A stretch of 64,000 bases of DNA from Actinomycetes bacterium (GCA_021823165.1 JAKAOS010000001.1:4543-68542); one strand, 5' to 3'; shown: positions 34,304 to 52,479, numbered from the stretch's first letter. Numbers and translations are program-made. The notes: a model not told the origin generated them from the letters alone.

Positions 34304-35767
34304 CTAAATTGCCGCGGGACGGTGCCCGGCCGTGCCGTGGTGGTGAGTAGCGGCCTCTGCACGCTCGACCGCGCTGTGCATCTGCTCCAGGGTTGGCTGC
34401 CGGCACAGGAAGTAGACCACGACCGCCGCCAGTGCCCCGAGTGCGGCACCGAAGAGGAAGCCTCTCTCCCAGTGGAAGGTGGCGGTCCCATAGAGGGTGC
34501 CGGTCATGATCAGAGCGGCAAGTCCACCTGCAAAGCTGCCCCCCAGTGCCTTGAAGGCATAGATGGAGCCGTAGTTGATGGCGTTGTTGTTCTCCCCGTA
34601 GTAGTCCGAGACAATCGCTGCGGTCATTGGGAAGTTGGCCCCCGACAGCCCACCGGAGATGACTGCAAAGACTGCAAAGAGCACTGGCTGGTGTGCAAAA
34701 CCCGCCGCCAGGGTGGCCAGCTGGAAGACCACGTTCCCGCTGTAGGCGACGGTCATTGTCTTGCGCCGCCCGATGTATTCCGACAAAAGCCCATAGAACG
34801 GCCGGAAGATCCCATCGGTCAGGGAGAACCCCGCCACACCCGCAACAGCTGCCACCGTCCCCAGATGCATGGCTTCGGCAAAGGGGAAGTAGTAGGCGAC
34901 TCCGAACAGCGAGCATCCCACATACAACGCGAACTGGATGCCCAGCCACTTGGCCTGGGGTGTGTACCAGGTCTCTCTCAGGTTGTAGTGGTGCAGAGCC
35001 GGAGGGTTGGAAATGAGGTCCCTGGCGGTCCTGCGGTTCTTGGCCCAGTTGAGCGGGTCGACACTTGCAGGCCACCAGTTCTTGGGAGGGTCCTTCATGA
35101 AGGCACCGGCAAGGGCTATGCCCACCGTCATGATGATCCCCTGGACGATGATGAAGTTCTTCACCTGGGCAACGGAAAGCGGGATTGCACCCGAACTGGT
35201 GCTGAGGGCGCCAATTGCGATGATGAAGGGCACCGAGCCGTATGCCCAGCCACCGTTCACAAAGCCTGTCCGCCATCCTTTGCGCTCTGGATACCACTTG
35301 GCGACGATGTTTATGGCACTGGAATAGACCATGCCCGAACCGATGCCGCCGAGCACTGCGTATCCGAGATACGCAGTCCAGATGGTGGTGGACTCGGCGG
35401 TGATGCCGTAGGCGACGATTCCACAGACCAGGCCACCCAGCATCGTTGCCCAGCGGACAGGCAGGACGCCGCGGTTTCGCAGATACCCCGTCCCGATCTG
35501 GACGAAGGATTCAAAGATGACGAAAAATGAAAACAGCCAGAATGTTGGGGCTGTGCCCCAGTGGTGGGCGGAGGACAACGATCCCGAAAGTGCCCCCCAC
35601 GTATACTCCAAAAGCCCGGCCAGACACATTGCAAGCCAGGCGGCCAAGATGACGATGGCCCTTGGGAAACCGAGGATGTCCACGGGTCTTTCCCCGACCC
35701 GGAAGACTCGCCCGGTCGATCCGACAACCTCTCGGTAGCCGGAGACGGTGCCGTCTGATGCGGCCAT
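34304..35767 (-). CDS. MFS transporter, oxalate/formate antiporter (OFA) family
   Basis: 487-aa ORF with 12 predicted TM segments. The OFA-like loop 'AKWYPERKGWRTGFVNGGWAYGS' fits the family's KWFP(D/E)RRG pattern. Confidence 0.8.
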   Translation of the reverse strand: MAASDGTVSGYREVVGSTGRVFRVGERPVDILGFPRAIVILAAWLAMCLAGLLEYTWGALSGSLSSAHHWGTAPTFWLFSFFVIFESFVQIGTGYLRNRGVLPVRWATMLGGLVCGIVAYGITAESTTIWTAYLGYAVLGGIGSGMVYSSAINIVAKWYPERKGWRTGFVNGGWAYGSVPFIIAIGALSTSSGAIPLSVAQVKNFIIVQGIIMTVGIALAGAFMKDPPKNWWPASVDPLNWAKNRRTARDLISNPPALHHYNLRETWYTPQAKWLGIQFALYVGCSLFGVAYYFPFAEAMHLGTVAAVAGVAGFSLTDGIFRPFYGLLSEYIGRRKTMTVAYSGNVVFQLATLAAGFAHQPVLFAVFAVISGGLSGANFPMTAAIVSDYYGENNNAINYGSIYAFKALGGSFAGGLAALIMTGTLYGTATFHWERGFLFGAALGALAAVVVYFLCRQPTLEQMHSAVERAEAATHHHGTAGHRPAAI

Positions 35768-36184
35768 TTGCTCCCCCTAGTTTTGACTGCCCCTGCACGG
35801 TGGACCCTGCAGTGGGCCTGGTTTATCCATTCAGCCCAGCCGAGGCGGGGCCTTGTTAGTCCTGGGGACGATCCGAAAGCCAACCGGCTCATCGAGATCT
35901 GACCCTTCCAAGCGGCCTGGGCGGACCGGGGGGCAATGCCCGCCCAGCCGGTCACCGCGGTGGCGACCGGTTTGAAGTGATGGGGAGAAGGACGGCGAAG
36001 GTCTGCGCGGGACCACCCCGTTTGAACCGAGCCCTTCCAGCTACCAGACGGGCCGCAACGATGCATTCCATTTGGTCTCCCGCATGCTCAGCTTGTGACG
36101 GAGCTCAGCCTAACACAGGCGCCAAGACGCGCAAGGGTAAAGATGTGCGATGGGTCCCAATTCAGAGCGAGACAAAAAAAACTC

Positions 36185-36212
36185 TTGACTGGTATACCAG
36201 CGGCGATACGAT
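36185..36212 (+). promoter_or_regulatory. Candidate promoter TTGACT-N16-TACGAT overlapped by the perfect palindrome CTGGTATACCAG (36189-36200)
   Basis: Read directly from the sequence. It sits in an unusually AT-rich stretch (about 36120-36340) of the 705-bp divergent region. The palindrome core TGGTATACCA fits a GntR-type GT-Nx-AC operator. Confidence 0.3.
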
Positions 36213-36472
36213 TGATGCGTCCGAAGGAGAAAAGGCCATTGACGCAGTCAACAGTGATTTGCAGAAGCGGAAAGTGAAAGCGTCGGTGGCTGCAGGAAAT
36301 GCATTGATGTTAGAGGTAGAGATCGTGGTGCTTTAGGGGTGGAGCCGGAAGGCACTGTGCAAAGTCGCAGGTAGCTGTCGTAAAGGCCTCTTGAGGAGCG
36401 GACGGGCGGCCCCAGGAGTAGGGCTTTGATGACGGATCTACATTTTCGCGCTCTCGGGGAGGATGATGCCTG

Positions 36473-37543
36473 ATGGCTGTCGGATCGGTCGACGTTACAT
36501 ACCGAGGCATTTTTCAAAAGTCGCTTGCGAGCGTAATCACAAAGGCGCTGGTAAAAGCCGCCAGGCACGAACACAAGATTGGCGGGACGGTACAGCGCTA
36601 CAGCGATTCGCCAGAGCGCAATGGGATTCCCGCAAAGCAGTTTGCTGTCATTGCAGATGAGGAGACGTCGCTCCGGGTGGAGATGGCCAAATATGAGCCC
36701 GACACCGTGGTGGCGACCTGTGTGTTGGATGACACCCTGGTGAAGGGGTTGGAATCCTGGGCGTGGTATGGGGTGCAGGCGGTAAATGCCAGCCTCAGCC
36801 CCGGTGGAGTCCTTTTGGTCGTGTCCGAGCGACCCATCGAAGAACTGGCGGATTGGATGCCCAGGGCTGATTTCGATTGGCGACTTGCGGTGCTGTCGCG
36901 CAAGACGAGTTTCGCAGGCCTCTGGGTCTACAACGACGACGGTACGGACATGGAGGTTCTCGGCGCACTCTCCAGGGTGACGGGGGGCCTTGTCGCCCTG
37001 GAGAGCCTTGTCGCCACAGCCGCTGCAGGCTCCGATGCCGCCCGGCGGGCGGAGTTGTTGGAGAGTGGCTTTTCTTCGGTACAGGTGGCACCAATTAGCG
37101 CGGGGGTGGGGCGGGAATGGCCCTATGAGACCCCCGCTCTTCCCGCGTGGGACGAGATGGGAGAGGGCGTAGCGATAAGGGGCGTTCCCAAAGGCGAGCG
37201 GAACATGCTGTTCCAGAAGTTCACGACCCGGACCGCGAGGCCCGTTGTGGACTTCGATCGCTGCGTTCGTTGCCAGATCTGCTACACCGTTTGTCCCGAC
37301 GAAGCCTTCGACCCGACACCCTCGGGGCATTACGCGGTCGATTACGGCCACTGTTGCGGTTGTGGCATATGTGCAAATGCCTGCCCGGTGGAGGGCTGCA
37401 TAGAGATGGTGGATGAGCTGGCATTCTCCGACAACTCCGATCTCCACCGCATCTACGAGGCCGATCCCGAGGGCTATGGGAATCTGCGCCAGGCGGCCCT
37501 GGCTACGGCGGGTGGGCCGGTCCGGCATTACGGGATCTTCTGA
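36473..37543 (+). CDS. 2-oxoacid:ferredoxin oxidoreductase gamma-delta fusion subunit (domains III+V)
   Basis: The N-terminal ~240 aa are gamma-like, but the 'GRGGQG' loop is replaced by 'YRGIFQKS'. The C-terminus carries two ferredoxin motifs, 'CVRCQICYTVCP' and 'CCGCGICANACP'. GGGGAGGA lies ~10 nt upstream. Confidence 0.85.
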   Translation: MAVGSVDVTYRGIFQKSLASVITKALVKAARHEHKIGGTVQRYSDSPERNGIPAKQFAVIADEETSLRVEMAKYEPDTVVATCVLDDTLVKGLESWAWYGVQAVNASLSPGGVLLVVSERPIEELADWMPRADFDWRLAVLSRKTSFAGLWVYNDDGTDMEVLGALSRVTGGLVALESLVATAAAGSDAARRAELLESGFSSVQVAPISAGVGREWPYETPALPAWDEMGEGVAIRGVPKGERNMLFQKFTTRTARPVVDFDRCVRCQICYTVCPDEAFDPTPSGHYAVDYGHCCGCGICANACPVEGCIEMVDELAFSDNSDLHRIYEADPEGYGNLRQAALATAGGPVRHYGIF

Positions 37544-37555
37544 GGAGTTGGTCAT

Positions 37556-38827
37556 ATGACAACTATCGAAAAGCCGGTTTCGACCCCGGGCCCGGCAGGC
37601 GGAGGGCCCGGGTACCAAGAGGAGATCCTGACCGGTTGTGATGCAGTCGCCCAGAGCCTTCGGCTCTTGGACGTCGATGTGCTGGCTGGCTATCCCATAA
37701 GGCCCTACGACGCGGTGATGGCGACGGTGGCCAAGATGATCGCTAACGGCGAGATGGACGCCGAGTTCATCATCGCCGACTCCGAGCATTCCCAGTTCGA
37801 GATTGGCAAGCACGCCTCTTTGGTGGGAGCCAGGAGCTTCATCGGGTCATCGGGTGTGGGATGGATGTATGGCATGGAGGCACTGGTGGTGACCTCCTCA
37901 CTCCGGCTCCCGGTTGTGGCCCTGGTCGGCAACCGGGCTCTGGATGATCCCGGGGCCTTTGGCGTCGAACACAACGATGCGCTCATGGTGCGGGACACGG
38001 GTTGGCTGCTCTACTGGGTCGAGACCGCCCAGGAGGCCTTGGACATGACACTCATGGCCTACAGGGTGGCCGAGGATCATAGGGTGATGTTGCCCTGCGC
38101 CCTTTCCATGGATGGGGCGTTTCTGACCCACTCCCAGCACGTGGTCCAGGTTCCCGGTAAGGCTGCGGTGGAGCGCTTTGTGCCCCAATACGACCTGGGG
38201 GACCGCAGGCTACACCCCGACAATCCCATCTCGGTGGCCCCCCAGTTCAACGAGGACTGGGTCATGGAGGCCCGGCGCCAGAGCGACGCTGCGATGCGGA
38301 GAGTGCCGGGGGTGATAGAGGAGGCCGCAGCTGAGTTCAAAGAGGTGTTCGGGCGGGGGCCCGAGGATCCATTCGTCGAGGCTTACATGATGCAGGATGC
38401 CGAATACGCGCTGGTGGGTATGGGCACGGTCGGCATGGTTGGCAAGGTCGCCGTCGACCAGATGCGCGCGCAGGGAAAGAAGGTCGGCTTTTTGCGTGTG
38501 AAGTGGTTCCGCCCCTTCCCCGCATCTCGCCTGCGGTCCCTGCTCGGCGGACTGAAGGGCATAGGTGTCATAGACCGGGACTACTCCTTTGGCTCCAATG
38601 CTTGGGGAGGCGTCCTCTACACCGAGGTTGCGGCCGCTCTTTATGCATCTGGGAGCCGTCCGGTGGTGGTCCCCTTCATAGCGGGGCTCGGGGGCAGGGA
38701 GGTTTCGGTGCAGAACATGGTCGAGATACAAGGTGTTGTCGAACAACACATCGCATCGCAGCCGGCCGAGGTCGACTGCCACTGGATAGGCGTTCGCGAA
38801 CATGTTGGCAAGGGGGGTGAGCGGTGA
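37556..38827 (+). CDS. 2-oxoacid:ferredoxin oxidoreductase alpha subunit (oxalate-oxidoreductase-like)
   Basis: PorA-type domains I+II with 'SEHSQFEIGKHASLVGARSF' and 'RLPVVALVGNRAL'. It reads 'GYPIRP' instead of the usual 'YPITP'. Confidence 0.88.
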   Translation: MTTIEKPVSTPGPAGGGPGYQEEILTGCDAVAQSLRLLDVDVLAGYPIRPYDAVMATVAKMIANGEMDAEFIIADSEHSQFEIGKHASLVGARSFIGSSGVGWMYGMEALVVTSSLRLPVVALVGNRALDDPGAFGVEHNDALMVRDTGWLLYWVETAQEALDMTLMAYRVAEDHRVMLPCALSMDGAFLTHSQHVVQVPGKAAVERFVPQYDLGDRRLHPDNPISVAPQFNEDWVMEARRQSDAAMRRVPGVIEEAAAEFKEVFGRGPEDPFVEAYMMQDAEYALVGMGTVGMVGKVAVDQMRAQGKKVGFLRVKWFRPFPASRLRSLLGGLKGIGVIDRDYSFGSNAWGGVLYTEVAAALYASGSRPVVVPFIAGLGGREVSVQNMVEIQGVVEQHIASQPAEVDCHWIGVREHVGKGGER

Positions 38828-39876
38828 TGGCGACAGTCGCGGAGGCATTGGCGGACCTGTCGGTCGGGCGGCGGCTGAAGGTGCTGCCGCTCGAGGAGCT
38901 GTACACCTCGGGGCACCGGACCTGCCAGGGTTGTGAGTCGGCCCTCGTTATGAGGTATATGGCCAAGGTGGCAGGGCCGCGTACGGTGGTGACGGGCACC
39001 ACGGGGTGTATGTATGTGGCCAACACCAGCTACAACTCGACCCCCTGGGTGGTGCCCTGGGCACACACCCAGTTGGGAGCGGCGGGTTCCTCGGCCCTGG
39101 GCACTGCGGCGGGCCTGGAGGCGCTCATGCGCAAGGGCAAGATCCCCAGGGAGAAGATCAATGTGATCGCCTTCTGCAGCGACGGAGGCGGCGGTGACAT
39201 GGGGCTGTCGGGAATCTCTGCGGCAATGCAGGACACCCGTTACAACCTTTTGATCCTGCTCTATGACAACGAGTCCTACGCCAACACCGACATCCAGGCC
39301 TCCGGCATGACCCCCTGGGGTGCGGTCACCTCCTTTACCCCTTCGGGCACCAAGAAAAAGATCAGTCAGCACCGCTGGAAGAAGAACGTGCCCGCATTGC
39401 TCATGGCAGGGCACCCCCAGGGCCGCTATTTCGCCTCGGCCTCCTCGGGGTTCGGAATGGACCTCATGGAAAAGGTCCGCATCGCGCTGGACGTTGGAGG
39501 CCCCACATTCGTCCAGACCCACGACCCCTGCCCCAAAGGCTGGGACTTCGATCCCCGGCGCTCCCATGAGTTGGCCATCTTGGCCGTGGAGTGCGGGATA
39601 ACGGTGCTTTGGGACTTCCTGGAGGGTGAGCTTCGCTACCAGGGCGTCACCCGCCAGTTGGTGGAAGGCGCGCTGAAACGTCGCCCGGTGGCAGAGTATT
39701 TGCAGATCCAGGGCCGTTTTGCCCACTTCGGCGACGAGGAGATCGACTACTTCCAATCCCAGATCGACGAGATGTGGGAGCAGTGGCTGCTTCCGGGTGT
39801 GCTGCCGGCCACCGCCATACCCCAGGAGTTGGAACTTGGCACGGCCGCTGGCCGGGGGAGGTCGGAGGATGTCTGA
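38824..39876 (+). CDS. 2-oxoacid:ferredoxin oxidoreductase beta subunit (TPP / [4Fe-4S])
   Basis: Cluster Cys residues 'HRTCQGC', 'TTGCMYV' and 'HDPCPKGW'. TPP-Mg motif 'CSDGGGGDMG...YDNESYANTDIQ'. GTGA overlap with alpha. Confidence 0.88.
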   Translation: MMATVAEALADLSVGRRLKVLPLEELYTSGHRTCQGCESALVMRYMAKVAGPRTVVTGTTGCMYVANTSYNSTPWVVPWAHTQLGAAGSSALGTAAGLEALMRKGKIPREKINVIAFCSDGGGGDMGLSGISAAMQDTRYNLLILLYDNESYANTDIQASGMTPWGAVTSFTPSGTKKKISQHRWKKNVPALLMAGHPQGRYFASASSGFGMDLMEKVRIALDVGGPTFVQTHDPCPKGWDFDPRRSHELAILAVECGITVLWDFLEGELRYQGVTRQLVEGALKRRPVAEYLQIQGRFAHFGDEEIDYFQSQIDEMWEQWLLPGVLPATAIPQELELGTAAGRGRSEDV

Positions 39877-41101
39877 GCTGTTGGCAGTTGGCCGGATCAC
39901 AGACCTTGACGCCCTCGGCCCCGCCGAGACACTGGAGTCCTATGTCGGGCGCGGTGGTTATGAGGGGTTGCGCAGGGCGTTGTCGATGGAACCCGAACAG
40001 ATCACCGCCCAAGTGGACCAGGCCGGCGTCGTCGGCCGGGGGGGAGCGGGATTCCCCGCCGCGGCCAAATGGCGCATGGCTGCGGCCAATCCCGGCCCTC
40101 GTTACCTGGTGGTAAACGGAGCCGAAGGCGAACCCGGCTCCTACAAGGACCGCCATCTGATGGCCCGGGCGCCGCACCAGGTGTTGGAGGGCATCGCCAT
40201 AGCCTCCAGGGCGATAGGTGCAACCACGGCGGTTGTGTATGTAAACAGGCTTTTTGCAAAAGCGGGAGCCGCCCTGGAGGCGGCCGCTGGGGAACTGGGT
40301 TCCAGTGATTTGGCAAAGGCCCTCCCGAAGCTCTCGGTTCGGGTGGAGCACCATGTCTACATTGCGGGCGAGGAGACCGCGCTGCTTGCCGCCCTCATCG
40401 GCCGGCCGCCCTGGCCCTGGCCAAAGCCCCCCTATCCCGCCGAGCGCGGGCTGTATGGATCACCCACGGTGGTGAACAATGTCGAGACTCTGGCACATGT
40501 CTCGGCGGTGCTGCGTCTCGGGCCGGCCTGGTATCAAAACCAACGCCCCATTCTTTTCTCCGTCACCGGGGATGTCTCCACTCCGGTCGTGGTCGAGTCG
40601 AGCCTCGGGGTGAGCCTGGAATCGCTTTTGTCCCAGGCGGGGGGAGTGATGAGGGGCGACGAGGTAGCGGGGGTGCTGCCTGGGGGTTACTCCCTGCCGT
40701 GGTTGGGGGCCGACCAGTTGGGACTCGCCATGGATCCAGTGGCCCTGGCCGAGGCTGGCACCGGGCTCGGGGCTTCGATCATCGTGGTCGGACGGCGCCG
40801 GGGGCTTGGTTCTGCAGCGGCGGCCATTGCGGCATTTTTCGCCCGGGAAACCTGCGGCACCTGCCCAATCTGTGTCACCGGCACCGCGCGTCTGGCCGAG
40901 GCCATGGCGGCGGGAGTCGACAGTGGCTTGGTGCCAGAGAGGGCGGAGGCGGTCGAAAGCCTGGCTGCGGAGCACCGCCACCGGGGTATCTGCACCCTGT
41001 TGGACACAGCAGCGGCCATGGCCCAGAGCGCAGCGCCGAGGCTGGTTTCCCATGGTCGCAGGGCTGGCGCATTTACTCCCATGGCAACAAAGCAAAGCTG
41101 A
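39869..41101 (+). CDS. NuoF-like NAD(H)-binding FMN/[4Fe-4S] flavoprotein (orphan, no NuoE/G nearby)
   Basis: 'GRGGAGFPAAAKW', 'NGAEGEPGSYKDRHLM' and 'ETCGTCPIC...GICTLLD'. ATG 39869 overlaps the beta-subunit stop by 8 nt. Confidence 0.85.
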   Translation: MSELLAVGRITDLDALGPAETLESYVGRGGYEGLRRALSMEPEQITAQVDQAGVVGRGGAGFPAAAKWRMAAANPGPRYLVVNGAEGEPGSYKDRHLMARAPHQVLEGIAIASRAIGATTAVVYVNRLFAKAGAALEAAAGELGSSDLAKALPKLSVRVEHHVYIAGEETALLAALIGRPPWPWPKPPYPAERGLYGSPTVVNNVETLAHVSAVLRLGPAWYQNQRPILFSVTGDVSTPVVVESSLGVSLESLLSQAGGVMRGDEVAGVLPGGYSLPWLGADQLGLAMDPVALAEAGTGLGASIIVVGRRRGLGSAAAAIAAFFARETCGTCPICVTGTARLAEAMAAGVDSGLVPERAEAVESLAAEHRHRGICTLLDTAAAMAQSAAPRLVSHGRRAGAFTPMATKQS

Positions 41102-41163
41102 GCAGGCCCAGGTCGCCGTCTTGGCCAGTGGGCTTGGTAGGTGCCGGTACTAGATTGGCCCAG

Positions 41164-42345
41164 ATGTCTCGGTCCTCATCCCAGCAAGTAGCGGTCATCG
41201 GGGCGGGCGTGATCGGTCTGTCCGTCGCCTGGGAGTTGGCCACATCGGGTCTCGGGGTGACAGTTGTTGACCCCGCTCCCGGTTCTGGAGCTTCGGGGGT
41301 GGCCGCCGGAATGCTCGCGGCGGTCACCGAGGCTCACTTCACCGAACCCGATCTGGCGGGGGCGAACGTGTTGTCCCTGTCGCTGTGGCCGGGATATGCA
41401 TCCAGGCTGGAGGCCGCTTCGGGGATGGTGGTCGGCTTGGAGAGGGCCGGAACTCTGGTGGTGGCCGGTGATCCCTCAGACCGGGATGCCCTGGCGCAGC
41501 TGGGCCGTTTTGTGAACTCCATCGGCCTTGAGGCCGAGTGGATCGGGGCCAGGGAACTTCGCAGGCGAGAACCGCTACTGTCGCCGAATCTCACCGGGGC
41601 CCTTTTTGCTCCCGGCGACTACAGCGTCAACAACCGATCCCTTCATGCTGCGTTGCTGGCGGCGTGCAAGACGGCGGGAGTGGACTTTGTGCAGGAGGCT
41701 GCATCGGGGGTCGCCACATCGGATGCCACGGCGATAGGTGTCACCATCTCCGGCGGGGAGCTGATCGCTGCGGAGTGGGTTGTGGTTGCGGCCGGGGCCT
41801 GGACCGCGGGGATATCGGGCCTGCCCCTTTCGCTGACCTCCGCTCTGCGGCCGATAAAGGGCCACATCCTGCGGTTGTCGCCCACCGAACGGGCCGGCCC
41901 TCTTCCTCTTTTGTCCCACACGGTGCGGGGATTGGTCAACGGCCGCCCGGTCTATTTGGTTCCCCGCGCGGACCGAGAGTTGGTCCTGGGGGCCACCAGC
42001 GAGGAACGCGGCTTTGATTTGCGCAAAGAGGCAGGGAGCGTCGGGGACCTGTTGCAGGACGCCAGGGCCGTGCTGCCGGCCATAGATCACTGCGAACTGA
42101 CCGAGATCGGGGTGGGGTTGCGGCCGGGGTCCTTCGACAACGCTCCGGTGGTGGGCAGGGTGGGACCCAGGGGACTGGTGGCGGCCTGCGGGCATTACCG
42201 CAACGGCATCCTCCTAGCGCCCCTCACCGCCGAGTTGGTTGCCGACGAGATCCTCGGGAACAGCCGCCACAGCATCCCATCCTTTTTGCCCTCCCGGCTG
42301 GTCGAGCGAAAGAATCCAGCACTCCAGGAGGGGGGCCTTGGCTGA
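41164..42345 (+). CDS. thiO: Glycine oxidase
   Basis: 'VAVIGAGVIGLSVAWELA' FAD motif. It sits in thiO-thiS-thiG-thiD order. Start set at the internal ATG of ORF 40699..42345. Confidence 0.85.
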   Translation: MSRSSSQQVAVIGAGVIGLSVAWELATSGLGVTVVDPAPGSGASGVAAGMLAAVTEAHFTEPDLAGANVLSLSLWPGYASRLEAASGMVVGLERAGTLVVAGDPSDRDALAQLGRFVNSIGLEAEWIGARELRRREPLLSPNLTGALFAPGDYSVNNRSLHAALLAACKTAGVDFVQEAASGVATSDATAIGVTISGGELIAAEWVVVAAGAWTAGISGLPLSLTSALRPIKGHILRLSPTERAGPLPLLSHTVRGLVNGRPVYLVPRADRELVLGATSEERGFDLRKEAGSVGDLLQDARAVLPAIDHCELTEIGVGLRPGSFDNAPVVGRVGPRGLVAACGHYRNGILLAPLTAELVADEILGNSRHSIPSFLPSRLVERKNPALQEGGLG

Positions 42346-42373
42346 ACCGAGCGCGGATAGGGGTGGATCAGAG

Positions 42374-44293
<1,920 letters not shown>

Positions 44294-44697: not shown

Positions 44698-46083
44698 ATG
44701 TCAGCCAGCGATCCCGCAGCTTCTGTCAACCCGGTTCCCACCACTGCAGAGGAACTCGCCGCGGCCGTAGAACGTGACGGGGTGGAGTTCATGCTCGCGA
44801 TGTTTGTGGACATGCATGGAAAACCCTGTGCCAAACTGATTCCCGCCTCATCGGTGGAAGAGACCGCCAAATCTGGTGCGGGCTTTGCGGGCTTTGCGGC
44901 CGGCGCACTGGGCCAGACCCCGGCCGATCCCGACCTTGCGGCCATTCCCGATCCCCGTTCCTACACGGTGCTGCCGTGGAAGCCGGAGGTGGCCGTGGTC
45001 CAGTGCGACCCGACGGTGGGGGGAGAACCCTGGCCCTTTGCCCCCAGGGTGATCCTGGGCAGGCGCCTTGCCGCTTTGGCGGAGCGTTCGATGACTCTCA
45101 TGTGCGGAGCGGAGGCGGAGTACTTCTTGGTGCGCCGTTCGCCCGAGGGAGAGGTGATCCTCGCCGACGACCAGGACAGCGCAGCCTCCCCCTGTTACGA
45201 CGTTCGCGGCCTCATGCGGATGTATGACCACCTTGCTGCGGTGTCGCGGCATCTGAACTCTTTGGGTTGGGGCAACTACGCAAACGACCACGAGGATGCC
45301 AACGGGCAGTTCGAACAGAACTTTCGGTATGCAGATGCCATGACGACCGCGGACAGGCTCGTGCTCTTCCGATACCTGGTCCACTCCCTGGCCGAGGAGG
45401 CGGGCATGGAGGCGACCTTCATGCCCAAACCATTTTCGAACCTGACCGGCAACGGCTTGCACGTTCATTTGAGCCTTTGGTCCCACCAGGGCGATGAGCT
45501 CTTCGTGGATCCCGATGACCCCCGGGGCCTCGGGGTTTCTGGTCTTGGCTATCAGTTCATTGCAGGAATGCTGCAGCATGCTCGCTCCGCCGCCGCCATT
45601 ACCTGCCCCACGGTGAACTCCTACAAGCGCATGGGGGCCGGCCCTCCCCTGTCCGGTGCCACATGGGCACCTGCATATGTCGCCTATGGGGGCAACAACA
45701 GAACACACATGTTGCGGATCCCCGAACCCGGCCGGGTCGAGAACCGGGCGGTGGATGGGCTGGCAAATCCCTATCTCGCCTTTGCCGTGCTCCTGGAGGC
45801 CGGCCTCGACGGAGTCGACAGGGGACTGGACCCCGGGGAGCCGAATACCGCGAACCTCTTCGAGGCTGGCGTTGCAGACAAGGCGGGGCTTGGCTCCCTC
45901 CCCCCGACGCTGCTGCATGCCGCCGATGAACTGGTGAAAGACGACGTGCTGCGTTCCGCCCTCGGCAAGACCCCCCGCGGGGAGTACATCGACTACTACG
46001 CAGAGCTCAAGCGGCAGGAGTTCTTTGCGTATCACTCTCAGGTCAGTTCATGGGAGATCGATACCTATCTTTCCCGGGTCTGA
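44698..46083 (+). CDS. Glutamine synthetase-family protein, gamma-glutamyl-amine (GmaS/PuuA-like) synthetase candidate
   Basis: 461-aa GS catalytic-domain pattern with 'GAEAEYFL', 'HEDANGQFEQNF', 'ATFMPKP', 'GNGLHVHLSLW' and 'NRTHMLRIP'. Confidence 0.88.
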   Translation: MSASDPAASVNPVPTTAEELAAAVERDGVEFMLAMFVDMHGKPCAKLIPASSVEETAKSGAGFAGFAAGALGQTPADPDLAAIPDPRSYTVLPWKPEVAVVQCDPTVGGEPWPFAPRVILGRRLAALAERSMTLMCGAEAEYFLVRRSPEGEVILADDQDSAASPCYDVRGLMRMYDHLAAVSRHLNSLGWGNYANDHEDANGQFEQNFRYADAMTTADRLVLFRYLVHSLAEEAGMEATFMPKPFSNLTGNGLHVHLSLWSHQGDELFVDPDDPRGLGVSGLGYQFIAGMLQHARSAAAITCPTVNSYKRMGAGPPLSGATWAPAYVAYGGNNRTHMLRIPEPGRVENRAVDGLANPYLAFAVLLEAGLDGVDRGLDPGEPNTANLFEAGVADKAGLGSLPPTLLHAADELVKDDVLRSALGKTPRGEYIDYYAELKRQEFFAYHSQVSSWEIDTYLSRV

Positions 46084-46167
46084 GTTGTCTCTAAAGAAAC
46101 GAAGTAGTATGCTAGGAAACATTGCTGGCTCGGATCAGGGGATCGCCAGCCGATCGAGGAGGCGCCT

Positions 46168-47070
46168 ATGTGCGGAATAGCCTGCCTGTTGCTGAAGGAC
46201 GACTCACTGCAAAGTCGTCTTGGTGAGCTGATGGTTCCCATGGTGCAGGCCATGGAGGAGAGGGGAGCAGACTCGGCGGGTATTGCGATCTTCGGCCCCG
46301 GGGAACCCGCAGGTCTTCGCTTCTCCCTTTTAGCCAAACCGGGTGTCAACTGGGAGGACCTGGCGGCAGATCTTGCCGGTGAAGTCGGCGCCGATGTCAC
46401 CCTGGGCCGTAGGGCAGGGGCGAATGGGACCATTGCGACTCTGTTATGTGACTCCGATCCCCTTGTTTTCTCCAAGGCCCTCGAGGCTGTGGTGCCCAGC
46501 GTGGCTCTTTTGGGCTGGGGCCGTTCGGTGGAGGTGCTGAAGGCCACCGGGGCACCCAGCCAGATGTGCGAGGAGTACGGCATTGGGAACCTGGCCGGCC
46601 ACATCGGCCTGGCGCATACCCGTATGGCTACGGAGTCCGCAGTGACCGCAGAGCATTCCCATCCCTTTGTCCCCAGCCAGGACCTGGCGATTGTCCACAA
46701 TGGGAGCTTTTCAAACCACGCGACCGTCCGAAGAAGGCTGGAGGCGGAGGGCATCAGACTCGACACCGACAACGACTCAGAGGTGGCCGCCCGCTTTTTG
46801 GCCCTGCGCCTGGGCGAGGGGGACTCCCTTGATGGAGCGGTTCGGCACCTGACTGTGGAGATGGACGGCTTTTTCACCCTCGTGGTCGCCACCGCAGATG
46901 AGATATCGGTCGTGCGGGACGCCTTTTCCTGCAAGCCCGCAGTGGTTGCCGAAACCGAAGATTACGTAGCGGTCGCCTCGGAGTACAGGGCTCTGGCGAC
47001 ACTTCCCGGAATCGAGTTGGCAAAGGTGTTCGAGCCGCAGCCCGAGGAGGTCTACACGTGGTCACGCTGA
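46168..47070 (+). CDS. Class-II glutamine amidotransferase-like protein (GltB N-domain homolog; MgsA/GlxB-like)
   Basis: Ntn start 'MCGIACLLLK' and 'GLAHTRMATES'. Confidence 0.85.
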   Translation: MCGIACLLLKDDSLQSRLGELMVPMVQAMEERGADSAGIAIFGPGEPAGLRFSLLAKPGVNWEDLAADLAGEVGADVTLGRRAGANGTIATLLCDSDPLVFSKALEAVVPSVALLGWGRSVEVLKATGAPSQMCEEYGIGNLAGHIGLAHTRMATESAVTAEHSHPFVPSQDLAIVHNGSFSNHATVRRRLEAEGIRLDTDNDSEVAARFLALRLGEGDSLDGAVRHLTVEMDGFFTLVVATADEISVVRDAFSCKPAVVAETEDYVAVASEYRALATLPGIELAKVFEPQPEEVYTWSR

Positions 47071-47750
47071 ACTGCGAGGGTGTGGGCACAAGGGAGATCA
47101 ACAGAACTCTCCAGTCCCTCCCCGAGGGTGCAACGGCGGTGCTGGAGGCCCCAGGTGGCCGCCACAACCTGGTGGTCGGCGTATCGGAGCCGATAAAAGT
47201 CCAGGTGATGGGCAACGCGGGTTACTACCTGGGTGGCCTGTGCGGCTCCAAGGACGCAACGGGTCTCGAAATCAGGGTGAAGGGGTTCACTGGCTGGGGA
47301 ACCGGTGAGAACCTGATGGGCGGCACCATCGTGGTGGAGGGCAGTGTCTCTCAGAGCACCGGCGCCTCGGCCAGGGGTGGGCTGATTGTGGTGGAGGGTG
47401 ACGCATCGCTGCGCACGGGCATCTCGCTCAAGGGGGCCACCATCGCCGTCGCAGGAGACAGCGGGGCGATGACGGGCTTCATGGCCCAGGCCGGGACCAT
47501 CCTCATTGGCGGGGACGCCGGGCACGCCCTTGGGGACTCATTGTTCGAAGCGGTCATCTATGTGGCGGGGCGTATTCGCTCCCTGGGCGCCGACGCCCGG
47601 ATAGAGGACCTGACAGAGGAGGACGTTGCTGCGGTGAAGAACCTCGTGGAAAAGGCGGGATTCGACCATATCTCGCCCGGCGATGTGACAAGGGTTGCAT
47701 CTGCCAAGCAGCTTTACCACTTCCGCTCCGAGCACCGGGGGATCTACTGA
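47058..47750 (+). CDS. GXGXG-motif protein (GltB C-domain homolog; MgsB/GlxC-like)
   Basis: Beta-helix repeats 'GNAGYYLGG', 'MGGTIVVEGS', 'RGGLIVVEGD' and 'GTILIGGDAG'. 13-nt overlap with the upstream gene. Confidence 0.85.
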   Translation: MVTLNCEGVGTREINRTLQSLPEGATAVLEAPGGRHNLVVGVSEPIKVQVMGNAGYYLGGLCGSKDATGLEIRVKGFTGWGTGENLMGGTIVVEGSVSQSTGASARGGLIVVEGDASLRTGISLKGATIAVAGDSGAMTGFMAQAGTILIGGDAGHALGDSLFEAVIYVAGRIRSLGADARIEDLTEEDVAAVKNLVEKAGFDHISPGDVTRVASAKQLYHFRSEHRGIY

Positions 47751-49096
47751 TGAAAACCGCTCCCGAACCGCACAACCACAGCTTCCCCAAAGAGGTGATC
47801 GGCCGGATACACGAAATGGCCGAGAGCGGAAACTACGTGATCCGGGGCCTGGGGGCGAGGCGGCGCCTGCCAAGCTTCGATGACCTGAGCTTTCTCACCG
47901 CGTCCGCTTCCCGATACCCCCTCGAGGGCTATCGGGAGCAGTGCAGCACCCAGACGGTGCTGGGGGCACGCAATGGTGCCAAGCCCATCGTGTTGGACAT
48001 ACCAATCACCATTGCCGGCATGAGCTTTGGCGCCCTGTCGGCCTCGGCTAAAGAGGCCCTGGGTAGGGCGGCGAGTGCGGTTGGGACGTCTACCACCACA
48101 GGCGATGGCGGCATGACCCCAGAGGAGCGCAAGGCATCGGCCAAACTCGTCTACCAGTTGCTCCCCTCCCGCTACGGCTTCGATCCGGGGGATCTCCGCC
48201 AGGCCGATGCGGTGGAGATCGTGATCGGCCAGGGTGCCAAGCCCGGAGGCGGTGGCCTCCTTCTGGGCCAGAAGGTCGACGAGAGGGTGGCCTCGATGCG
48301 GACTTTGCCCGCCGGGATCGACCAGCGCTCCGCCAGCCGGCACCCCGATTGGGTCGGCCCCGATGACCTGCAAATCAAGATCGAGGAGCTCCGGGAGGCC
48401 ACTGGGGGTGAGATCCCGGTTTATGTGAAGATTGGTGCCACCAGGGTTACCCACGACGTCAAGCTGGCGATAGCTGCTGGAGCCGACGTCGTTGTGGTCG
48501 ATGGAATGCAGGGCGGAACAGCCGCCACCCAGGAGGTCTTTATCGAGCACGCCGGGATCCCGACCCTCCCCGCGGTTCGTTTGGCCGCCGAGGCCATTGC
48601 CGATGCCAATGTCGATGGCGAGGTTCAGCTGATTGTCTCGGGAGGAATCCGCTCCGGCGCGGATGTCGCCAAGGCACTAGCCCTGGGCGCCGATGCGGTC
48701 TCTCTTGGTGTCGCATCCTTGGTGGCATTGGGTTGCAATCGCGGGCACTACCAAAGCCCACTGGGCAAGCTTGTGGACCTCGAGGCCGACTACAGGGCGA
48801 TTGGCACCAGGCCGGGGGAGTGCGCCCACTGCCACACCGGGCTCTGCCCGGTCGGTATTGCAACCCAGGAGCCGGCCCTTGAGCAACGATTGGACGTGGA
48901 GGCGGCCGCGGAGCATGTTGCCAACTTCCTGCGCGCCACCACCATGGAGGTGACCGCCATTGCCAGGGCATGTGGGAAATCCGACGTGCATCACCTGGAG
49001 CCGGAGGATTTGGTGGCCCTGAGCATCGAGGCCGCTGCGATGGCGAGGGTTCCACTGGCAGGCACCGACTGGATCCCGGGAATGGGTAGGCCGTGA
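47750..49096 (+). CDS. FMN-binding glutamate-synthase-family protein (GltB central-domain homolog; MgsC/GlxD-like)
   Basis: 'GAKPGGGGLLLG', 'VVVVDGMQGGTAA', 'VSGGIRSGADVAKALALGADAV' and '[13 protein letters not shown]'. TGATG junction with the upstream gene. Confidence 0.88.
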   Translation: MKTAPEPHNHSFPKEVIGRIHEMAESGNYVIRGLGARRRLPSFDDLSFLTASASRYPLEGYREQCSTQTVLGARNGAKPIVLDIPITIAGMSFGALSASAKEALGRAASAVGTSTTTGDGGMTPEERKASAKLVYQLLPSRYGFDPGDLRQADAVEIVIGQGAKPGGGGLLLGQKVDERVASMRTLPAGIDQRSASRHPDWVGPDDLQIKIEELREATGGEIPVYVKIGATRVTHDVKLAIAAGADVVVVDGMQGGTAATQEVFIEHAGIPTLPAVRLAAEAIADANVDGEVQLIVSGGIRSGADVAKALALGADAVSLGVASLVALGCNRGHYQSPLGKLVDLEADYRAIGTRPGECAHCHTGLCPVGIATQEPALEQRLDVEAAAEHVANFLRATTMEVTAIARACGKSDVHHLEPEDLVALSIEAAAMARVPLAGTDWIPGMGRP

Positions 49097-49129
49097 CCGG
49101 CACGAACCTGAGAAACAATCCTTATAAGT

Positions 49130-50317
49130 GTGGTTGCCGTGGCTGAACAAGATCGGGCAGTGATCATCGTCGGCGGGGGCATAGAGGGCCTTTCGATCGC
49201 CCGGGCGCTCGCCGCCCGGGGCGTCGGGCCGGTGACCCTTTTGGAGCGGGCCCACTTGGCTTCGGGCATGACCAGCAAGTCAAGTGGGGTAGTGCGGTGC
49301 CACTACGGGGTGGAATCCCTTGCTGCGATGGCTTGGCGTTCCGTCGGCATCCTGGAGGACTTGGGCATGGCGGCGGGATTTCGCCAGGTCGGCTATGTCG
49401 TTGGAGTTGGCGAGCAAAACACCGTTGCCCTCAAGGCAAATGTGGCCACACAGCAGGCACTCGGCATAGAAGTGGAGCTCATAGACCACGGCAAGGCAGC
49501 CGAGCTGTGGCCCCATGCCAAACTCGACGACTTCGCCGGCTTCGCCTACGAACCCCGCGGCGGTTACGGCGACGGCTACCAGACGGCGCAGAGCTTTGCA
49601 TCCCAGGCAAAGGATCTGGGCGCCGAACTGCGGCGGAAGACAGCTGTGGAGTCCCTTGTTCACTCCGCCGGGGAGATCACCGGTGTCGCCTTGGCAGACG
49701 GCAGCGTCATCAGGGCGCCAAAGGTGGTGGTTGCGGCCGGCATGCATAGCTCGGCACTCATGCAACCTTTGGGTATCGCGGTACCCCTCCGAGCGCAGTT
49801 GGCGCCCATCTTCCTGGTGGACCCCGGGCAGAGAACCGGAGCCATCCCGGTTCTTTCGGACTTGGTTTCTCTGCAGTATGTAAGGCCCGACGGAGCGGGC
49901 TCGCTGCTCATGGGTGGGAGCGACCACAACAACCCCACCTGGGTGGACCCAGACCGCTACCCGACGGGGCCCACGTGGGCCCACATGTCTGATGCCCTAT
50001 CCAAATTCGAATACCGCTTCCCAAAACTCACCGGAGCGTCCGTAGTCTCCTCCTACACCGGCTATTACGACGTAACCCCCGACTACAACCCGGTCATATC
50101 AGCCACCCCAATTGCGGGTCTGTATCTGGCGGCTGGATTCAGTGGTCATGGTTACAAGATCTCGCCGGCCGTAGGGGAGCTTATGGCGGATTTGATCTGT
50201 TGTGGGGAAAGCCAGTATCCCGGCATTGATCACAAAGATTTCCAGCTCCAACGCTTTGTTGAGAAACGACCGTTGCTGAGCCCGCACCCCTACGTGGGTG
50301 CCGGCGAGATGCGCTGA
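49130..50317 (+). CDS. FAD-dependent oxidoreductase (DAO / sarcosine-oxidase-beta-like)
   Basis: 'VIIVGGGIEGLSIARALAARG' and a C-terminal 'GFSGHGYKISPAVG'. Confidence 0.85.
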   Translation: MVAVAEQDRAVIIVGGGIEGLSIARALAARGVGPVTLLERAHLASGMTSKSSGVVRCHYGVESLAAMAWRSVGILEDLGMAAGFRQVGYVVGVGEQNTVALKANVATQQALGIEVELIDHGKAAELWPHAKLDDFAGFAYEPRGGYGDGYQTAQSFASQAKDLGAELRRKTAVESLVHSAGEITGVALADGSVIRAPKVVVAAGMHSSALMQPLGIAVPLRAQLAPIFLVDPGQRTGAIPVLSDLVSLQYVRPDGAGSLLMGGSDHNNPTWVDPDRYPTGPTWAHMSDALSKFEYRFPKLTGASVVSSYTGYYDVTPDYNPVISATPIAGLYLAAGFSGHGYKISPAVGELMADLICCGESQYPGIDHKDFQLQRFVEKRPLLSPHPYVGAGEMR

Positions 50318-50390
50318 GGGGGCCGAGGCGTGAAGGTGGGTGAGCTTGGGTCCTGTGCCAGAGACCCGGTCGCAGTTAGCATCTGTTGGC

Positions 50391-51062
50391 ATGGCCAAAG
50401 ACCTGGACAAGGGGAACCGCCGCCGCGTGCCCGAGGAAGGGGAGATCGAGCAGGAAACGGGGGAGGGGTCCTCCTCCGACCCCGAAGCTGGCGAAGCAAC
50501 AATGAAACAGCTCGGCTGGGTAATCGGGCACCACGTGCAGGCACGCAGGACCGAACTCGGCCAGACCGTCAGCCAGGTAGCGGACCGTGCGGGGATATCC
50601 AAGGGGATGCTCTCCAAGATAGAAAACGCCCATACCTCTCCCAGCCTGAGTACCCTTGCCCGCATCGCTGCGGCACTGGACATGCCACTTACTGCTCTTT
50701 TCCGTGGACTGGCGGAAGAAAGGGACGCCGTCTTTGTGAAGGCGGGGGCGGGCCCGGAGATAATCCGCCAGGGCACCAGGGCCGGACATCACTATCGCCT
50801 GCTGGGCAGCCTGCGCGGCCAGGAGCACAAGGTGGAGCCACTTCTGGTAACCCTGGAGGAACCCGCCGAGGTCTTTCCCCTGTTCCAACACAACGGCGTG
50901 GAGATCCTCTACATGCTCCAGGGCGTAATGGATTATGGCTATGGGACCCAGCACTACAGGATGTGCCCGGGCGACACCCTGCAGTTCGAGGGCGACATCA
51001 CCCATGGACCCAGCGCACTGGTCGAGTTACCGATCCGGTTTCTTTCGATCACGATCTTCTGA
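50391..51062 (+). CDS. XRE-HTH plus cupin transcriptional regulator (PuuR-like architecture)
   Basis: HTH 'LGQTVSQVADRAGISKGMLSKIENAHTSPSLSTLARIAAAL' and a C-terminal cupin 'GVEILYMLQG...PGDTLQFEGDITHG'. The start is ambiguous: 50340, 50391 or 50502. Confidence 0.8.
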   Translation: MAKDLDKGNRRRVPEEGEIEQETGEGSSSDPEAGEATMKQLGWVIGHHVQARRTELGQTVSQVADRAGISKGMLSKIENAHTSPSLSTLARIAAALDMPLTALFRGLAEERDAVFVKAGAGPEIIRQGTRAGHHYRLLGSLRGQEHKVEPLLVTLEEPAEVFPLFQHNGVEILYMLQGVMDYGYGTQHYRMCPGDTLQFEGDITHGPSALVELPIRFLSITIF

Positions 51063-51198
51063 GCGAACACCGCCCGGCTTCAACCAGAGCGGGCCGAGCT
51101 GCTCAACCCCGGGCGTTGGCAAACGCTTCACGCCCGCTGAGGGGTCAACTTTGTTTACCCGCGCTCAACCATCACGAAACAAAGCTGAAATCTTAAAT

Positions 51199-51219
51199 AA
51201 ATAGCCTATAGGTAAATAG
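51199..51219. promoter_or_regulatory. AAATAG-CCTATAGG-T-AAATAG element in an AT-rich spacer (candidate operator/promoter)
   Basis: 8-bp perfect palindrome CCTATAGG (51205-51212) flanked by direct AAATAG repeats, ~130 nt upstream of the DUF3445 gene. The row 51181-51240 hand-counts to 19/60 GC. Confidence 0.2.
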
Positions 51220-51341
51220 ATGACACAAGGTCAAACCGTTCTATGAGGCCTACATACTTCACGGCTATTACAGCCTGAGCTGCCGAGTTCTGAATTTGGC
51301 ATTGCGGCCAGGAAGGTTGCTGTTCCACAACGCTCGGGCCG

Positions 51342-52343
51342 GTGTTTGAGGCGACCCGTTCACGACAGGCGAAAGATCCTCCATTGACGATTTCCCAAAG
51401 CTTTCCTTTCCCTTTCGATTCCGACGAATATCGATACAGCATCAATTTGCGGCGGTCCGATGAGGCTCCGGTCGTGGTTGACGACTGGTATCTGGCCGAG
51501 ATAACCGAGCGCCGGTCCCTCCTCGACGAAGCGCACAGCCGCTGTTTCCAGGCCGAACCATGGACGATGCAGGCGCAGTGGGAGGTGCTCAGCTTGTGCC
51601 TCGCCGCCCTGGCGACCCAGGCGCCGGAGCACTTCAGGCTGGATATTCACGGGGAACGATGCGAGTTCGAGAATCGCCTTTCCGGAGAAATCCTCCGTTT
51701 CCGCATGTGGGATGACATGACCCTGGATTGCCAGCCCCTGGACCTCGCCGGCAGACACGTGCAGGAGGACCTCATACTCCTTGCCCAGAGGGAGGACGAC
51801 CTCTTCCTCGATGCCGGATCGGTGTGCTTCCCCGCCAACTGGTCCTTCCCCTTCGACGCAGGCATGAGCTACACCCAGATCCACTCCCCGGTCCCTTACT
51901 TCGGCAAACATTTGGCACCCAAGGCTCAGGCGTTTTTGGAGCGGATCCAGGCCTACGAGCAGTGGCAGCGCCTGAACTGGACCATGACGGTTAAGAGACG
52001 GTTGGATACCTCGGCGGAGAAGTACCACATCTGGCAGCCTGACTCTTTGGGTCTCGATCTCGACAACGTGGGTCGGCTTGTGCATTTGCGGGTCGAGGTC
52101 CAAAAGTTCGTCCGGCTTCCGGTGAGCAACCTCCTTTTGTTCACCATCCATACCTATATGCAGCCACTCGAAGAAATCGTGGGGAATCCAGAGTGGACCA
52201 GCCGGCTGGAGGCGGTGATGGCAAGCCTCCCAGACACCGTCGCAGAGTATAAAGAAATTGCACATTACAAGGATTTAGTTATCCAATACTGTGCAAAGCA
52301 AAGCTATCCCAGTGCCAAAGAGCTGGTCAGCAGGTCCAACTAA
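51342..52343 (+). CDS. DUF3445 / haem-dependent oxidative N-demethylase alpha-subunit-like protein
   Basis: 333-aa ORF. The N-terminal 'FPFPFDSDEYRYSINL' and overall length fit my recollection of DUF3445, and a PDR-type reductase lies in the same operon. The family call is from memory only. Confidence 0.7.
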   Translation: MFEATRSRQAKDPPLTISQSFPFPFDSDEYRYSINLRRSDEAPVVVDDWYLAEITERRSLLDEAHSRCFQAEPWTMQAQWEVLSLCLAALATQAPEHFRLDIHGERCEFENRLSGEILRFRMWDDMTLDCQPLDLAGRHVQEDLILLAQREDDLFLDAGSVCFPANWSFPFDAGMSYTQIHSPVPYFGKHLAPKAQAFLERIQAYEQWQRLNWTMTVKRRLDTSAEKYHIWQPDSLGLDLDNVGRLVHLRVEVQKFVRLPVSNLLLFTIHTYMQPLEEIVGNPEWTSRLEAVMASLPDTVAEYKEIAHYKDLVIQYCAKQSYPSAKELVSRSN

Positions 52344-52425: not shown

Positions 52426-52479
52426 GGTCTATCAGAACCAAGTGAACCAATCCCCATGTCATTACTAAGAAAGGAGCAG

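Follow-up and report, generated by a model that had tools for sequence, protein, structure and literature searches.

A 64,000-nt stretch of DNA from an Actinomycetes bacterium (GCA_021823165.1, JAKAOS010000001.1:4543-68542; hereafter the window, in whose positions all coordinates are given) carries a set of four plus-strand genes (36473-41101) that may encode a four-subunit, coenzyme A (CoA)-independent oxalate:NAD(P)+ oxidoreductase within an inducible oxalate-catabolic module, a reading to which we assign a probability of roughly 0.45. Three of the genes encode the gamma-delta, alpha and beta chains of a 2-oxoacid:ferredoxin oxidoreductase (OFOR) that resembles the oxalate oxidoreductase (OOR) of Moorella, the fourth encodes a NuoF-like flavoprotein, and a gene of the major facilitator superfamily (MFS), of the oxalate/formate antiporter (OFA) type, is transcribed divergently.

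A preliminary description of this DNA had reported that the four genes are tightly packed, with a 12-nt gap, a 4-nt GTGA overlap and an 8-nt overlap, and had placed an OFA-type MFS gene divergently from them; re-reading of the coordinates (Table 1) gave the same arrangement for both (an ATG at 38827 is an alternative start for the beta gene). All the motifs that it quoted, including GYPIRP (Arg49), GNR (Arg127) and YRGIFQKS, were found in the translations. The gamma-delta translation contains two CxxCxxCxxxCP motifs (CVRCQICYTVCP and CCGCGICANACP), and that of the NuoF-like protein GRGGAGFP, GAEGEPGSYKDR and CGTCPIC...C. The five proteins matched Pfam domains at levels far above chance, with E-values between 1e-10 and 1e-54: POR_N (9e-54) and PFOR_II (6e-31) in alpha, TPP_enzyme_C in beta, 4Fe-4S dicluster domains with matches to Fer4_21 and PorD_KorD in gamma-delta, Complex1_51K (5e-42), SLBB and NADH_4Fe-4S (1e-12) in the NuoF-like protein, and MFS_1 (9e-32) in the transporter. 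With domains I+II in alpha, a thiamine pyrophosphate (TPP)/Mg site and four cysteines in beta and a two-cluster delta part, the three chains can be assigned from sequence to the OFOR superfamily.

The characterised enzyme closest to this core is the Moorella OOR (EC 1.2.7.10; PDB 5C4I, 5EXD, 5EXE; NCBIfam NF045790-NF045792), a subunit of which was the best NCBIfam model and the top PDB match for each of the three chains. In NCBIfam, gamma-delta scored 97 bits against OxalOxreddelta (cut-off 230) over its full length (residues 6-320 to profile positions 15-316), alpha 352 bits against OxalOxredalpha (cut-off 500; PorA_Arch 336 bits) and beta 318 bits against OxalOxredbeta (cut-off 590; PorB 256 bits), all three thus remaining under the OOR equivalog cut-offs. 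In the PDB, alpha matched 5c4i_A with an E-value of 8e-91 (308 bits, versus 211 bits for the alpha chain of the pyruvate:ferredoxin oxidoreductase (PFOR) of M. acetivorans), beta matched 5c4i_C with 1e-78 (268 bits, versus 185 bits for PFOR), and gamma-delta matched 5c4i_B with 4e-16.

The correspondence extends to several residues of the active site. The proposal that Arg49 and Arg127 represent Arg31alpha and Arg109alpha of OOR held up in a gapless phmmer alignment (query 25-127 versus OOR 7-109), and the equivalents of Arg31, Arg109 and Phe117 were invariant in the 120 nearest alpha homologues (58-100% identity, from many phyla). An Arg109-type arginine is also common to other OFORs and does not discriminate among them; at the position of Arg31, 72 of 103 sampled OFOR alpha sequences have Thr. 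One study calls the YPIRP motif unique to OOR, describes Arg31alpha as binding the negatively charged substrate and names Arg31alpha and Asp116alpha as the residues that drive the "bait and switch" mechanism of OOR (PMC5020499). Asp116 is replaced in the window protein by Ala134 and Pro113 by Asp131, both replacements occurring in 120 of the 120 nearest homologues, and a loop that is invariant or nearly so among them, ALDDPGAFGVEH, takes the place of OOR TLDPPGDFGEEH; Asp116 is kept in the Moorella-type clade (OOR, P0250 and P0297). In beta, the cysteines of CQGC...GC...PCPKGW and the Mg/TPP motif SDGGGGD...YDNESYANT are conserved in the alignment with OOR beta, the Asn of YANT corresponding to Asn143beta.

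The chain partition of OOR (domains III+V, I+II and VI) had been claimed for the window genes as well, and both the full-length alignment with OOR delta and the predicted fold bear this out. An AlphaFold2 model of gamma-delta, built from a 32-sequence alignment (mean predicted local distance difference test score, pLDDT, 85.5), matched OOR delta chains over the whole length with E-values of 5e-21 to 1e-18 and target-normalised template modelling (TM) scores of 0.71-0.82; the corresponding E-values were about 4e-10 for PFOR and 1e-9 for isolated PorC subunits. The eight cluster cysteines were invariant in 32 homologues. The glycine-rich GRGGQG loop of domain III, which the preliminary description considered lost, is indeed replaced by YRGIFQK in the window and by ARGVVMN in OOR, compared with HGRGGQG in a canonical gamma chain (L030). 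This P-loop of domain III is reported to bind CoA in PFOR (PMC8091585), and OOR is described as the only OFOR that has no CoA requirement (PMC12337175); the OOR-like core may likewise work independently of CoA. Domain III of gamma-delta also carries nine inserted residues, (G)xESWAWYG (residues ~92-100, ~36746-36772), that have no counterpart in OOR or canonical PorC; four of them were invariant and four more at least 90% conserved in 32 type-B homologues. The conserved C-terminal ...GGPIPHYGIY of gamma-delta was considered as a docking element particular to the NuoF-linked clade and rejected as not diagnostic, since NuoF-less relatives have a partial counterpart.

To place the alpha chain, relatives were retrieved from 1.8 billion representatives clustered at 50% identity, and a neighbour-joining tree was calculated from 99 aligned sequences with 100 bootstraps (the sample comprised the best-scoring alpha-type relatives, mostly Por/Vor-like; the more distant KorA/IOR-type chains were left out). 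In this sample the sequences with Arg31, including Moorella OOR, were monophyletic (81/100 bootstraps), in agreement with the suggestion that the window alpha chain falls outside the Por and Vor groups. Within them, a Moorella-type lineage with the loop ADRTLDPPGDFGxEH (100/100) was sister to a window-type lineage with the loop GNRALDDPGAFGVEH (100/100), the latter found in Actinomycetota, Dormibacterota, Chloroflexota, Bacillota, Alphaproteobacteria, Nitrospinota and Rubrobacter, and most of the sequences without Arg31 had YPITP and unrelated loops. One sequence, P0248, represents a third YPIRP-type lineage (FPIRPY, loop GNRALDDPGNFAMEW, with ...DDPGNF...) that shares about 44% identity with each of the Moorella and window types, and P0364 is a further, divergent sequence with Arg31. 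Because the alpha chains of the window and of Moorella are only 42% identical, the NCBIfam scores lie under the cut-offs and Asp116 has become Ala, the OFOR core is, in terms of its sequence, a member of an OOR-like sister clade and not an orthologue of the characterised OOR.

The fourth protein is by sequence a genuine NuoF homologue, NuoF-like rather than a subunit of complex I. Its best PDB match was Aquifex NuoF (221 bits), and it reached 286 bits against TIGR01959, about half of the cut-off of 558.65. The GRGGA motif, NxAEGEPG (canonically NADESEPG), YxAGEE and the four cysteines of the N3-type cluster (C329, C332, C335 and C375) showed no or almost no variation among 111 family members, and the protein has neither NuoE-like nor ferredoxin-like extensions. 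In keeping with the claim that it is an orphan, no NuoE or NuoG homologue was found among the window open reading frames (ORFs) scanned with Pfam across the 64 kb. A contact between such a protein and delta would have a precedent, because in HydB (chain 7p5h_B) residues 151-537, which match the NuoF-like protein, are followed by residues 569-624, which match the ferredoxin domain of delta. The NuoF-like protein probably takes the electrons of the OFOR in some way; it may associate physically with the other chains and pass the electrons on to a nucleotide, putatively NAD(P)+.

The association of the fourth gene with the OFOR, which the preliminary description had based on the window, recurs elsewhere. 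A survey of gene neighbourhoods gave 12 further genome loci, all with an alpha of at least 74% identity, that keep the order gamma-delta, alpha, beta, F (the NuoF-like gene); they come from metagenome-assembled genomes (MAGs) of Actinomycetota and Dormibacterota, one of the 12, L028, being binned as Bacillota yet near-identical to a Dormibacterota locus. In 12 of the 12 exactly 8 nt, (A/G)TGnCTGA, are common to the stop of beta and the start of F, preceded within beta by GGAGG as Shine-Dalgarno sequence, and the same overlap was present in the one metagenome junction examined (L045). A scan of metagenomes with F yielded 17 loci, and beta lay directly upstream in all 13 for which upstream sequence was available, although several of these metagenome loci duplicate genome loci. 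Counted together (genome and metagenome loci and L052), F is linked to the OFOR in more than 25 loci, and the NuoF-like members that are at least 56% identical form one clade. L052 (50% GC), whose F is only 49% identical to that of the window, has the same order of four genes, with a LysR regulator instead of GntR. In L021, from an Actinomycetes MAG, gamma-delta (7454-8524) is apparently frameshifted mid-gene, which could reflect faulty assembly or a pseudogene, and alpha, beta, F and the MFS gene are intact. In public annotations the homologues are named pyruvate ferredoxin oxidoreductase, 4Fe-4S protein, SLBB-domain protein, and NuoF or NADH-quinone oxidoreductase subunit F.

The MFS protein is a candidate oxalate importer, its sequence marking it as an OFA-family member that scores under the family cut-offs. 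Its best NCBIfam model was TIGR00890, the oxalate/formate antiport family (155 bits, cut-off 375), TIGR04259 gave 125 bits (cut-off 335), and its best PDB match was OxlT (8hpj, E 1.3e-21). In OxlT each carboxylate of oxalate is salt-bridged, one to Arg272 and the other to Lys355, and Tyr35 and Tyr124 are hydrogen-bonded to the carboxyl groups (PMC10070484). All four residues are conserved in the window protein, Arg272 of transmembrane helix 8 as the R in DGIFRPFYG and Lys355 of helix 11 as K406, and positions 150, 328 and 352 are still occupied by aromatic residues; where OxlT has Lys355, the lactate transporter SfMCT carries Cys. Other residues of the pocket have changed (Gln34 to Glu, Gln66 to Glu, Asn268 to Asp, Gln63 to Val and Trp324 to Ser). 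That the transporter is a conserved partner of the operon was corroborated by orthologues (54-73% identity) directly downstream of F in 8 other loci (L016, L019, L021, L026, L035, L041, L044 and L045), and the less closely related MFS proteins that adjoin the cluster in L004/L009, L051 and L052 (26-41% identical to the window protein) keep the Arg/Lys pair, as did every cluster-linked MFS examined that had this position on its contig. If oxalate is converted to two CO2, no formate is left for exchange, and symport would then be likelier than antiport for the window protein.

The predictions of the preliminary description that computation can address were all borne out, and from these observations the following scheme can be proposed. 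Oxalate would be imported by the OFA-type MFS protein and held between Arg49alpha and Arg127alpha of the OOR-like TPP enzyme (alpha, beta and gamma-delta), which would convert it on TPP to two CO2 without CoA. The two electrons would leave singly, first by way of the cluster in beta and next by the two in delta, and would bypass free ferredoxin to reach the [4Fe-4S] cluster of the co-translated NuoF-like fourth subunit, whose flavin mononucleotide (FMN) would gather both and reduce NAD(P)+, the net reaction being oxalate + NAD(P)+ + H+ -> 2 CO2 + NAD(P)H. Since the CO2/oxalate couple lies well below NAD+/NADH, electron flow from oxalate to NAD+ would be downhill. Transcription would probably be repressed through a palindrome in the promoter by a GntR/FCD regulator encoded elsewhere in the genome.

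Several observations weigh against this scheme, and those that concern the substrate would be accommodated if the architecture and the presumed coupling to NAD(P)+ were as proposed but the clade, as a sister of OOR with its own specificity, acted on another small acid (glyoxylate, mesoxalate, hydroxypyruvate, oxaloacetate, oxamate or pyruvate). The replacement of Asp116alpha by Ala and of Pro113 by Asp throughout the window clade, the 42% identity of the alpha chains, the scores of all chains under the OOR cut-offs, the clade-specific ESWAWYG insertion and the altered transporter pocket (Trp324 to Ser, Gln34 and Gln66 to Glu) all fit such a specificity. So does the company that some relatives keep: a lactate/glycolate-type (LctP) permease and a GlcD-like oxidase occur near the NuoF-less loci L009 and L010, and in L052 (3439-12419) a gene for malic enzyme begins 22 nt after F and is followed by an OFA-type MFS gene, although the malic enzyme could instead be a consumer of the CO2 and NAD(P)H produced. 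This alternative nevertheless appears unlikely to us. The Arg31 of YPIRP, which replaces the usual Thr, is the residue described as accommodating the extra negative charge of oxalate (PMC5020499); the P-loop for CoA is missing, and an ordinary 2-oxoacid would therefore leave an acyl-TPP intermediate without an acceptor; and the linked transporters keep the dibasic Arg/Lys site for a C2 dicarboxylate. On balance, oxalate is somewhat more likely than not to be the substrate.

Other observations concern the route of the electrons. F is missing from a large sister subclade (alpha 58-70% identical) that does have gamma-delta, alpha and beta; it includes MAGs of Alphaproteobacteria, Bacillota, Chloroflexota and Clostridia and the cultured Rubrobacter naiadicus and R. 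calidifluminis, so the OFOR can work without the NuoF-like protein. Conversely, Hydrogenisulfobacillus and one MAG each of Actinomycetia and Firmicutes encode relatives of the NuoF-like protein (49-53% identity; L012/L013/L014 = P0190/P0197/P0218) whose genes stand alone among unrelated neighbours. These proteins are about 400 aa long with NGAEGEPG/YIAGEE and all four cluster cysteines, two of their genes adjoining those for small flavin or pyridine-nucleotide reductases; the family therefore needs no fixed OFOR partner, and, with stand-alone members in it, the replacement of free ferredoxin that the preliminary description envisaged is one of two possible modes. In the other, the OOR-like enzyme would reduce free ferredoxin and the NuoF-like protein would be a separate, soluble ferredoxin:NAD(P)+ oxidoreductase and not a subunit, which would also suit L052, where beta and F are separated by a 67-nt spacer with a 34-nt perfect hairpin and a small ferredoxin gene is transcribed divergently. 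We think this arrangement improbable for the window, because the 8-nt overlap with its internal Shine-Dalgarno sequence, kept in all 12 other genome loci and in L045, is a pattern typical of subunits made in a fixed ratio, and neither the window nor L004-L027 showed a ferredoxin gene within or next to the operon; moreover, a NuoF module such as that of complex I is not known to have a ferredoxin-binding surface of its own. OFORs are often oxygen-sensitive, and the host looks aerobic (see below), which is a further point against the proposed activity. It is very hard to believe, finally, that the genes encode an ordinary pyruvate:ferredoxin oxidoreductase with a spare complex I gene and an unrelated transporter as chance neighbours: the names given to the homologues would suggest as much, and PorA_Arch (336 bits) comes close to the OOR alpha model (352 bits), but YPIRP stands in place of YPITP, the P-loop is gone, the partition, the fold and the position in the tree are those of OOR, the gene order is kept in more than 25 loci across phyla, and the NuoF-like protein, at half the TIGR01959 cut-off, has no NuoE or NuoG nearby among the ORFs scanned.

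Table 1. Genes and candidate regulatory sites of the putative oxalate module (window coordinates).
Feature	Position	Strand	Remarks
MFS transporter, OFA-type, candidate oxalate importer	34304-35767	-	487 aa; Pfam MFS_1
Sigma-70-like promoter candidate, TTGACT-16 nt-TACGAT	36185-36212	+	only promoter-like site in 35600-41500
Perfect 12-bp palindrome in promoter spacer, candidate GntR/FCD (FadR-type) operator	36189-36200	unstranded	CTGGTATACCAG
Gamma+delta fusion (domains III+V), two [4Fe-4S] motifs, without CoA P-loop	36473-37543	+	356 aa
Alpha subunit (domains I+II), YPIRP motif	37556-38827	+	423 aa
Beta subunit (domain VI), TPP-binding, proximal [4Fe-4S] cluster	38824-39876	+	350 aa, GTG start
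NuoF-like flavoprotein; predicted FMN site, NAD(P)H site, one N3-type [4Fe-4S] cluster	39869-41101	+	410 aa

The number of promoter-like sites in the interval searched is not above chance (1 found, 1.0 expected), and the spacer of the candidate promoter contains a perfect palindrome (Table 1) that may be an operator for a GntR/FCD regulator. TGGT-N2-3-ACCA palindromes were found upstream of gamma-delta in L031 (TGGTATACCA), L023 (TGGTCCGACCA) and R. naiadicus L051 (TGGTCATACCA; operator-like palindrome TTGGTCATACCAA), but a strict search for TGGT-N2-4-ACCA recovered a palindrome in only 4 of 20 upstream regions, Rubrobacter included. Looser repeats of the GGTATAC(C) type precede gamma-delta in L009, L019 and L024, and in six actinobacterial loci (L015, L018, L020, L022, L026 and L027) a GGTATAC-type motif follows a CTTGAC(G) box there, the whole promoter-operator block, CTTGACG...GTATCCTGCCGACGGTATACAAT, being almost the same in all six; in L015, L026 and L027 a short upstream ORF or a long leader lies between this block and gamma-delta, whereas in L018, L020 and L022 the same Shine-Dalgarno sequence and ATG begin gamma-delta itself. 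GntR/FCD genes flank the cluster in at least 11 loci (L004, L007, L009, L010, L016, L018, L026, L027, L032, L048 and L051). No GntR homologue was found in the 64-kb window, and the tentative assignment of the operator therefore rests on other genomes. Rfam gave no match at gathering thresholds in the whole window, nor at permissive E-values in the two intergenic regions, and thus no riboswitch; an RNA element in the 258-nt leader between promoter and gamma-delta was considered and rejected, its folding being no better than that of shuffled sequences (z = -1.35). The ~420 nt between the start codon of the MFS gene and the operon promoter (35768-36184) are lower in G+C and have no convincing ORF or RNA match.

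The gene content of the window, including gltBD, treXYZ, pntAB, aconitase and a fused fbiC, makes the host look like an aerobic actinobacterium; the window also matched a contig of MAG GCA_027320565.1 and two ENA assemblies. About 63 nt after the NuoF-like gene follow thiO, thiS, thiG and thiD (41165-44293, plus strand), an arrangement seen only in this genome (L001-L003). Because this gap is short and contained neither a plus-strand terminator (consensus scan) nor a TPP riboswitch (Rfam, E up to 5), these thiazole/pyrimidine-kinase genes may be co-transcribed with the operon of the TPP-dependent enzyme. Further downstream (44698-53474, plus strand) lies a methylated-amine utilisation cluster in which a gmaS-like, glutamine-synthetase-like gene is followed by GATase_6/7, GXGXG and Glu_synthase genes (mgsABC-like), together with genes for a DAO flavoprotein, an HTH-cupin regulator, a haem-dependent oxidative N-demethylase alpha-like protein and a DmmA-like protein, which suggests that C1 and C2 compounds are used by the host.

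The R. naiadicus locus (L051, GCA_028617085.1, 9001-14225) comprises gamma-delta, alpha, beta and an MFS gene, its alpha chain has YPIRPY together with GNRALDDPGAFGVEH, and a GntR/FCD gene is near. As R. naiadicus and R. calidifluminis are cultured aerobic thermophiles with the NuoF-less form, cultured Rubrobacter offers a tractable system for the question of the substrate. If the proposed reading is true, the module would be a one-enzyme oxalate route that bypasses the formyl-CoA transferase/oxalyl-CoA decarboxylase pathway and a new mode of coupling low-potential OFOR electrons to NAD(P)+, and, through the NuoF-less form present in Rubrobacter and many other phyla, oxidation of oxalate by OOR-type enzymes would reach well past the acetogens. 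Oxalate is a major plant and fungal carbon flux into soil, and its use by bacteria has been tracked almost only through frc/oxc and the genes of cupin oxalate decarboxylases and oxidases; one gut-microbiome survey omitted OOR for lack of information (PMC8062136). Should the window clade oxidise oxalate, a widespread route and possibly an overlooked soil oxalate sink would have been missed because its genes are annotated as pyruvate ferredoxin oxidoreductase. The clade also provides a natural test of the "bait and switch" of OOR, with Ala for Asp116 and Asp at position 113, and a compact candidate for the regeneration of NAD(P)H from oxalate or for reverse CO2 chemistry.

Searches of the literature for OFOR-NuoF or OOR-NuoF systems found nothing relevant, in line with the earlier statement that no characterised OFOR-NuoF system was known, and we tentatively suggest that no OFOR before this one may have been seen with a NuoF module of the complex I type as its direct electron outlet, and that it might represent a new EC activity and a CoA-independent route from oxalate to 2 CO2 + NAD(P)H in uncultured soil Actinomycetota and Dormibacterota. 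Compared with the Moorella OOR, the chains are divided in the same way (alpha I+II, delta III+V, beta VI), Arg31, Arg109, Phe117 and Asn143beta are shared and neither sequence has the GRGGQG loop, whereas the window gamma-delta has the 9-residue insertion in domain III and a C-terminal tail of ~36 residues; the Moorella enzyme gives its electrons to ferredoxin whereas the window set has a fourth, NuoF-like gene, and Moorella is an anaerobic acetogen whereas the window type occurs in aerobic-looking soil Actinomycetota and Dormibacterota. Phenylglyoxylate dehydrogenase (PadEFGHI; NCBIfam NF045763-NF045766) likewise combines an OFOR core with a flavoprotein and has a pyridine nucleotide as acceptor (NADH-linked), and its models matched the window proteins weakly (258, 155 and 47 bits versus cut-offs of 700, 700 and 150). 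Other OFORs linked to NAD(P) are KorABC, the 2-oxoglutarate:NADP+ oxidoreductase of Azoarcus evansii, and, in Euglena and Cryptosporidium, PNO, a fusion of PFOR with a cytochrome P450 reductase (CPR); the flavoproteins of Pad, KorABC and PNO are of the GltD, FNR or cytochrome-P450-reductase type and not NuoF, and these enzymes are CoA-dependent and act on other substrates. The fourth protein belongs to the same fold family as NuoF (Nqo1, the 51-kDa subunit) and the corresponding modules of HydB, HoxF and FdsB, with GRGGAGF as FMN loop and the four N3 cysteines in common, but it has no N-terminal thioredoxin-like domain, no C-terminal ferredoxin domain and, among the ORFs scanned, no NuoE or NuoG partner, and it has the signature NGAEGEPG/YIAGEE where NuoF has NADESEPG/YICGEE; in HydB the NuoF module and a ferredoxin domain homologous to delta are parts of one chain. 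OxlT of Oxalobacter formigenes (PDB 8HPK, 8HPJ), like the window transporter, is an OFA-family MFS protein with Arg272/Lys355, Tyr35 and Tyr124, from which the window protein differs at pocket residues 34, 63, 66, 268 and 324 and in scoring far under the OxlT and OFA cut-offs.

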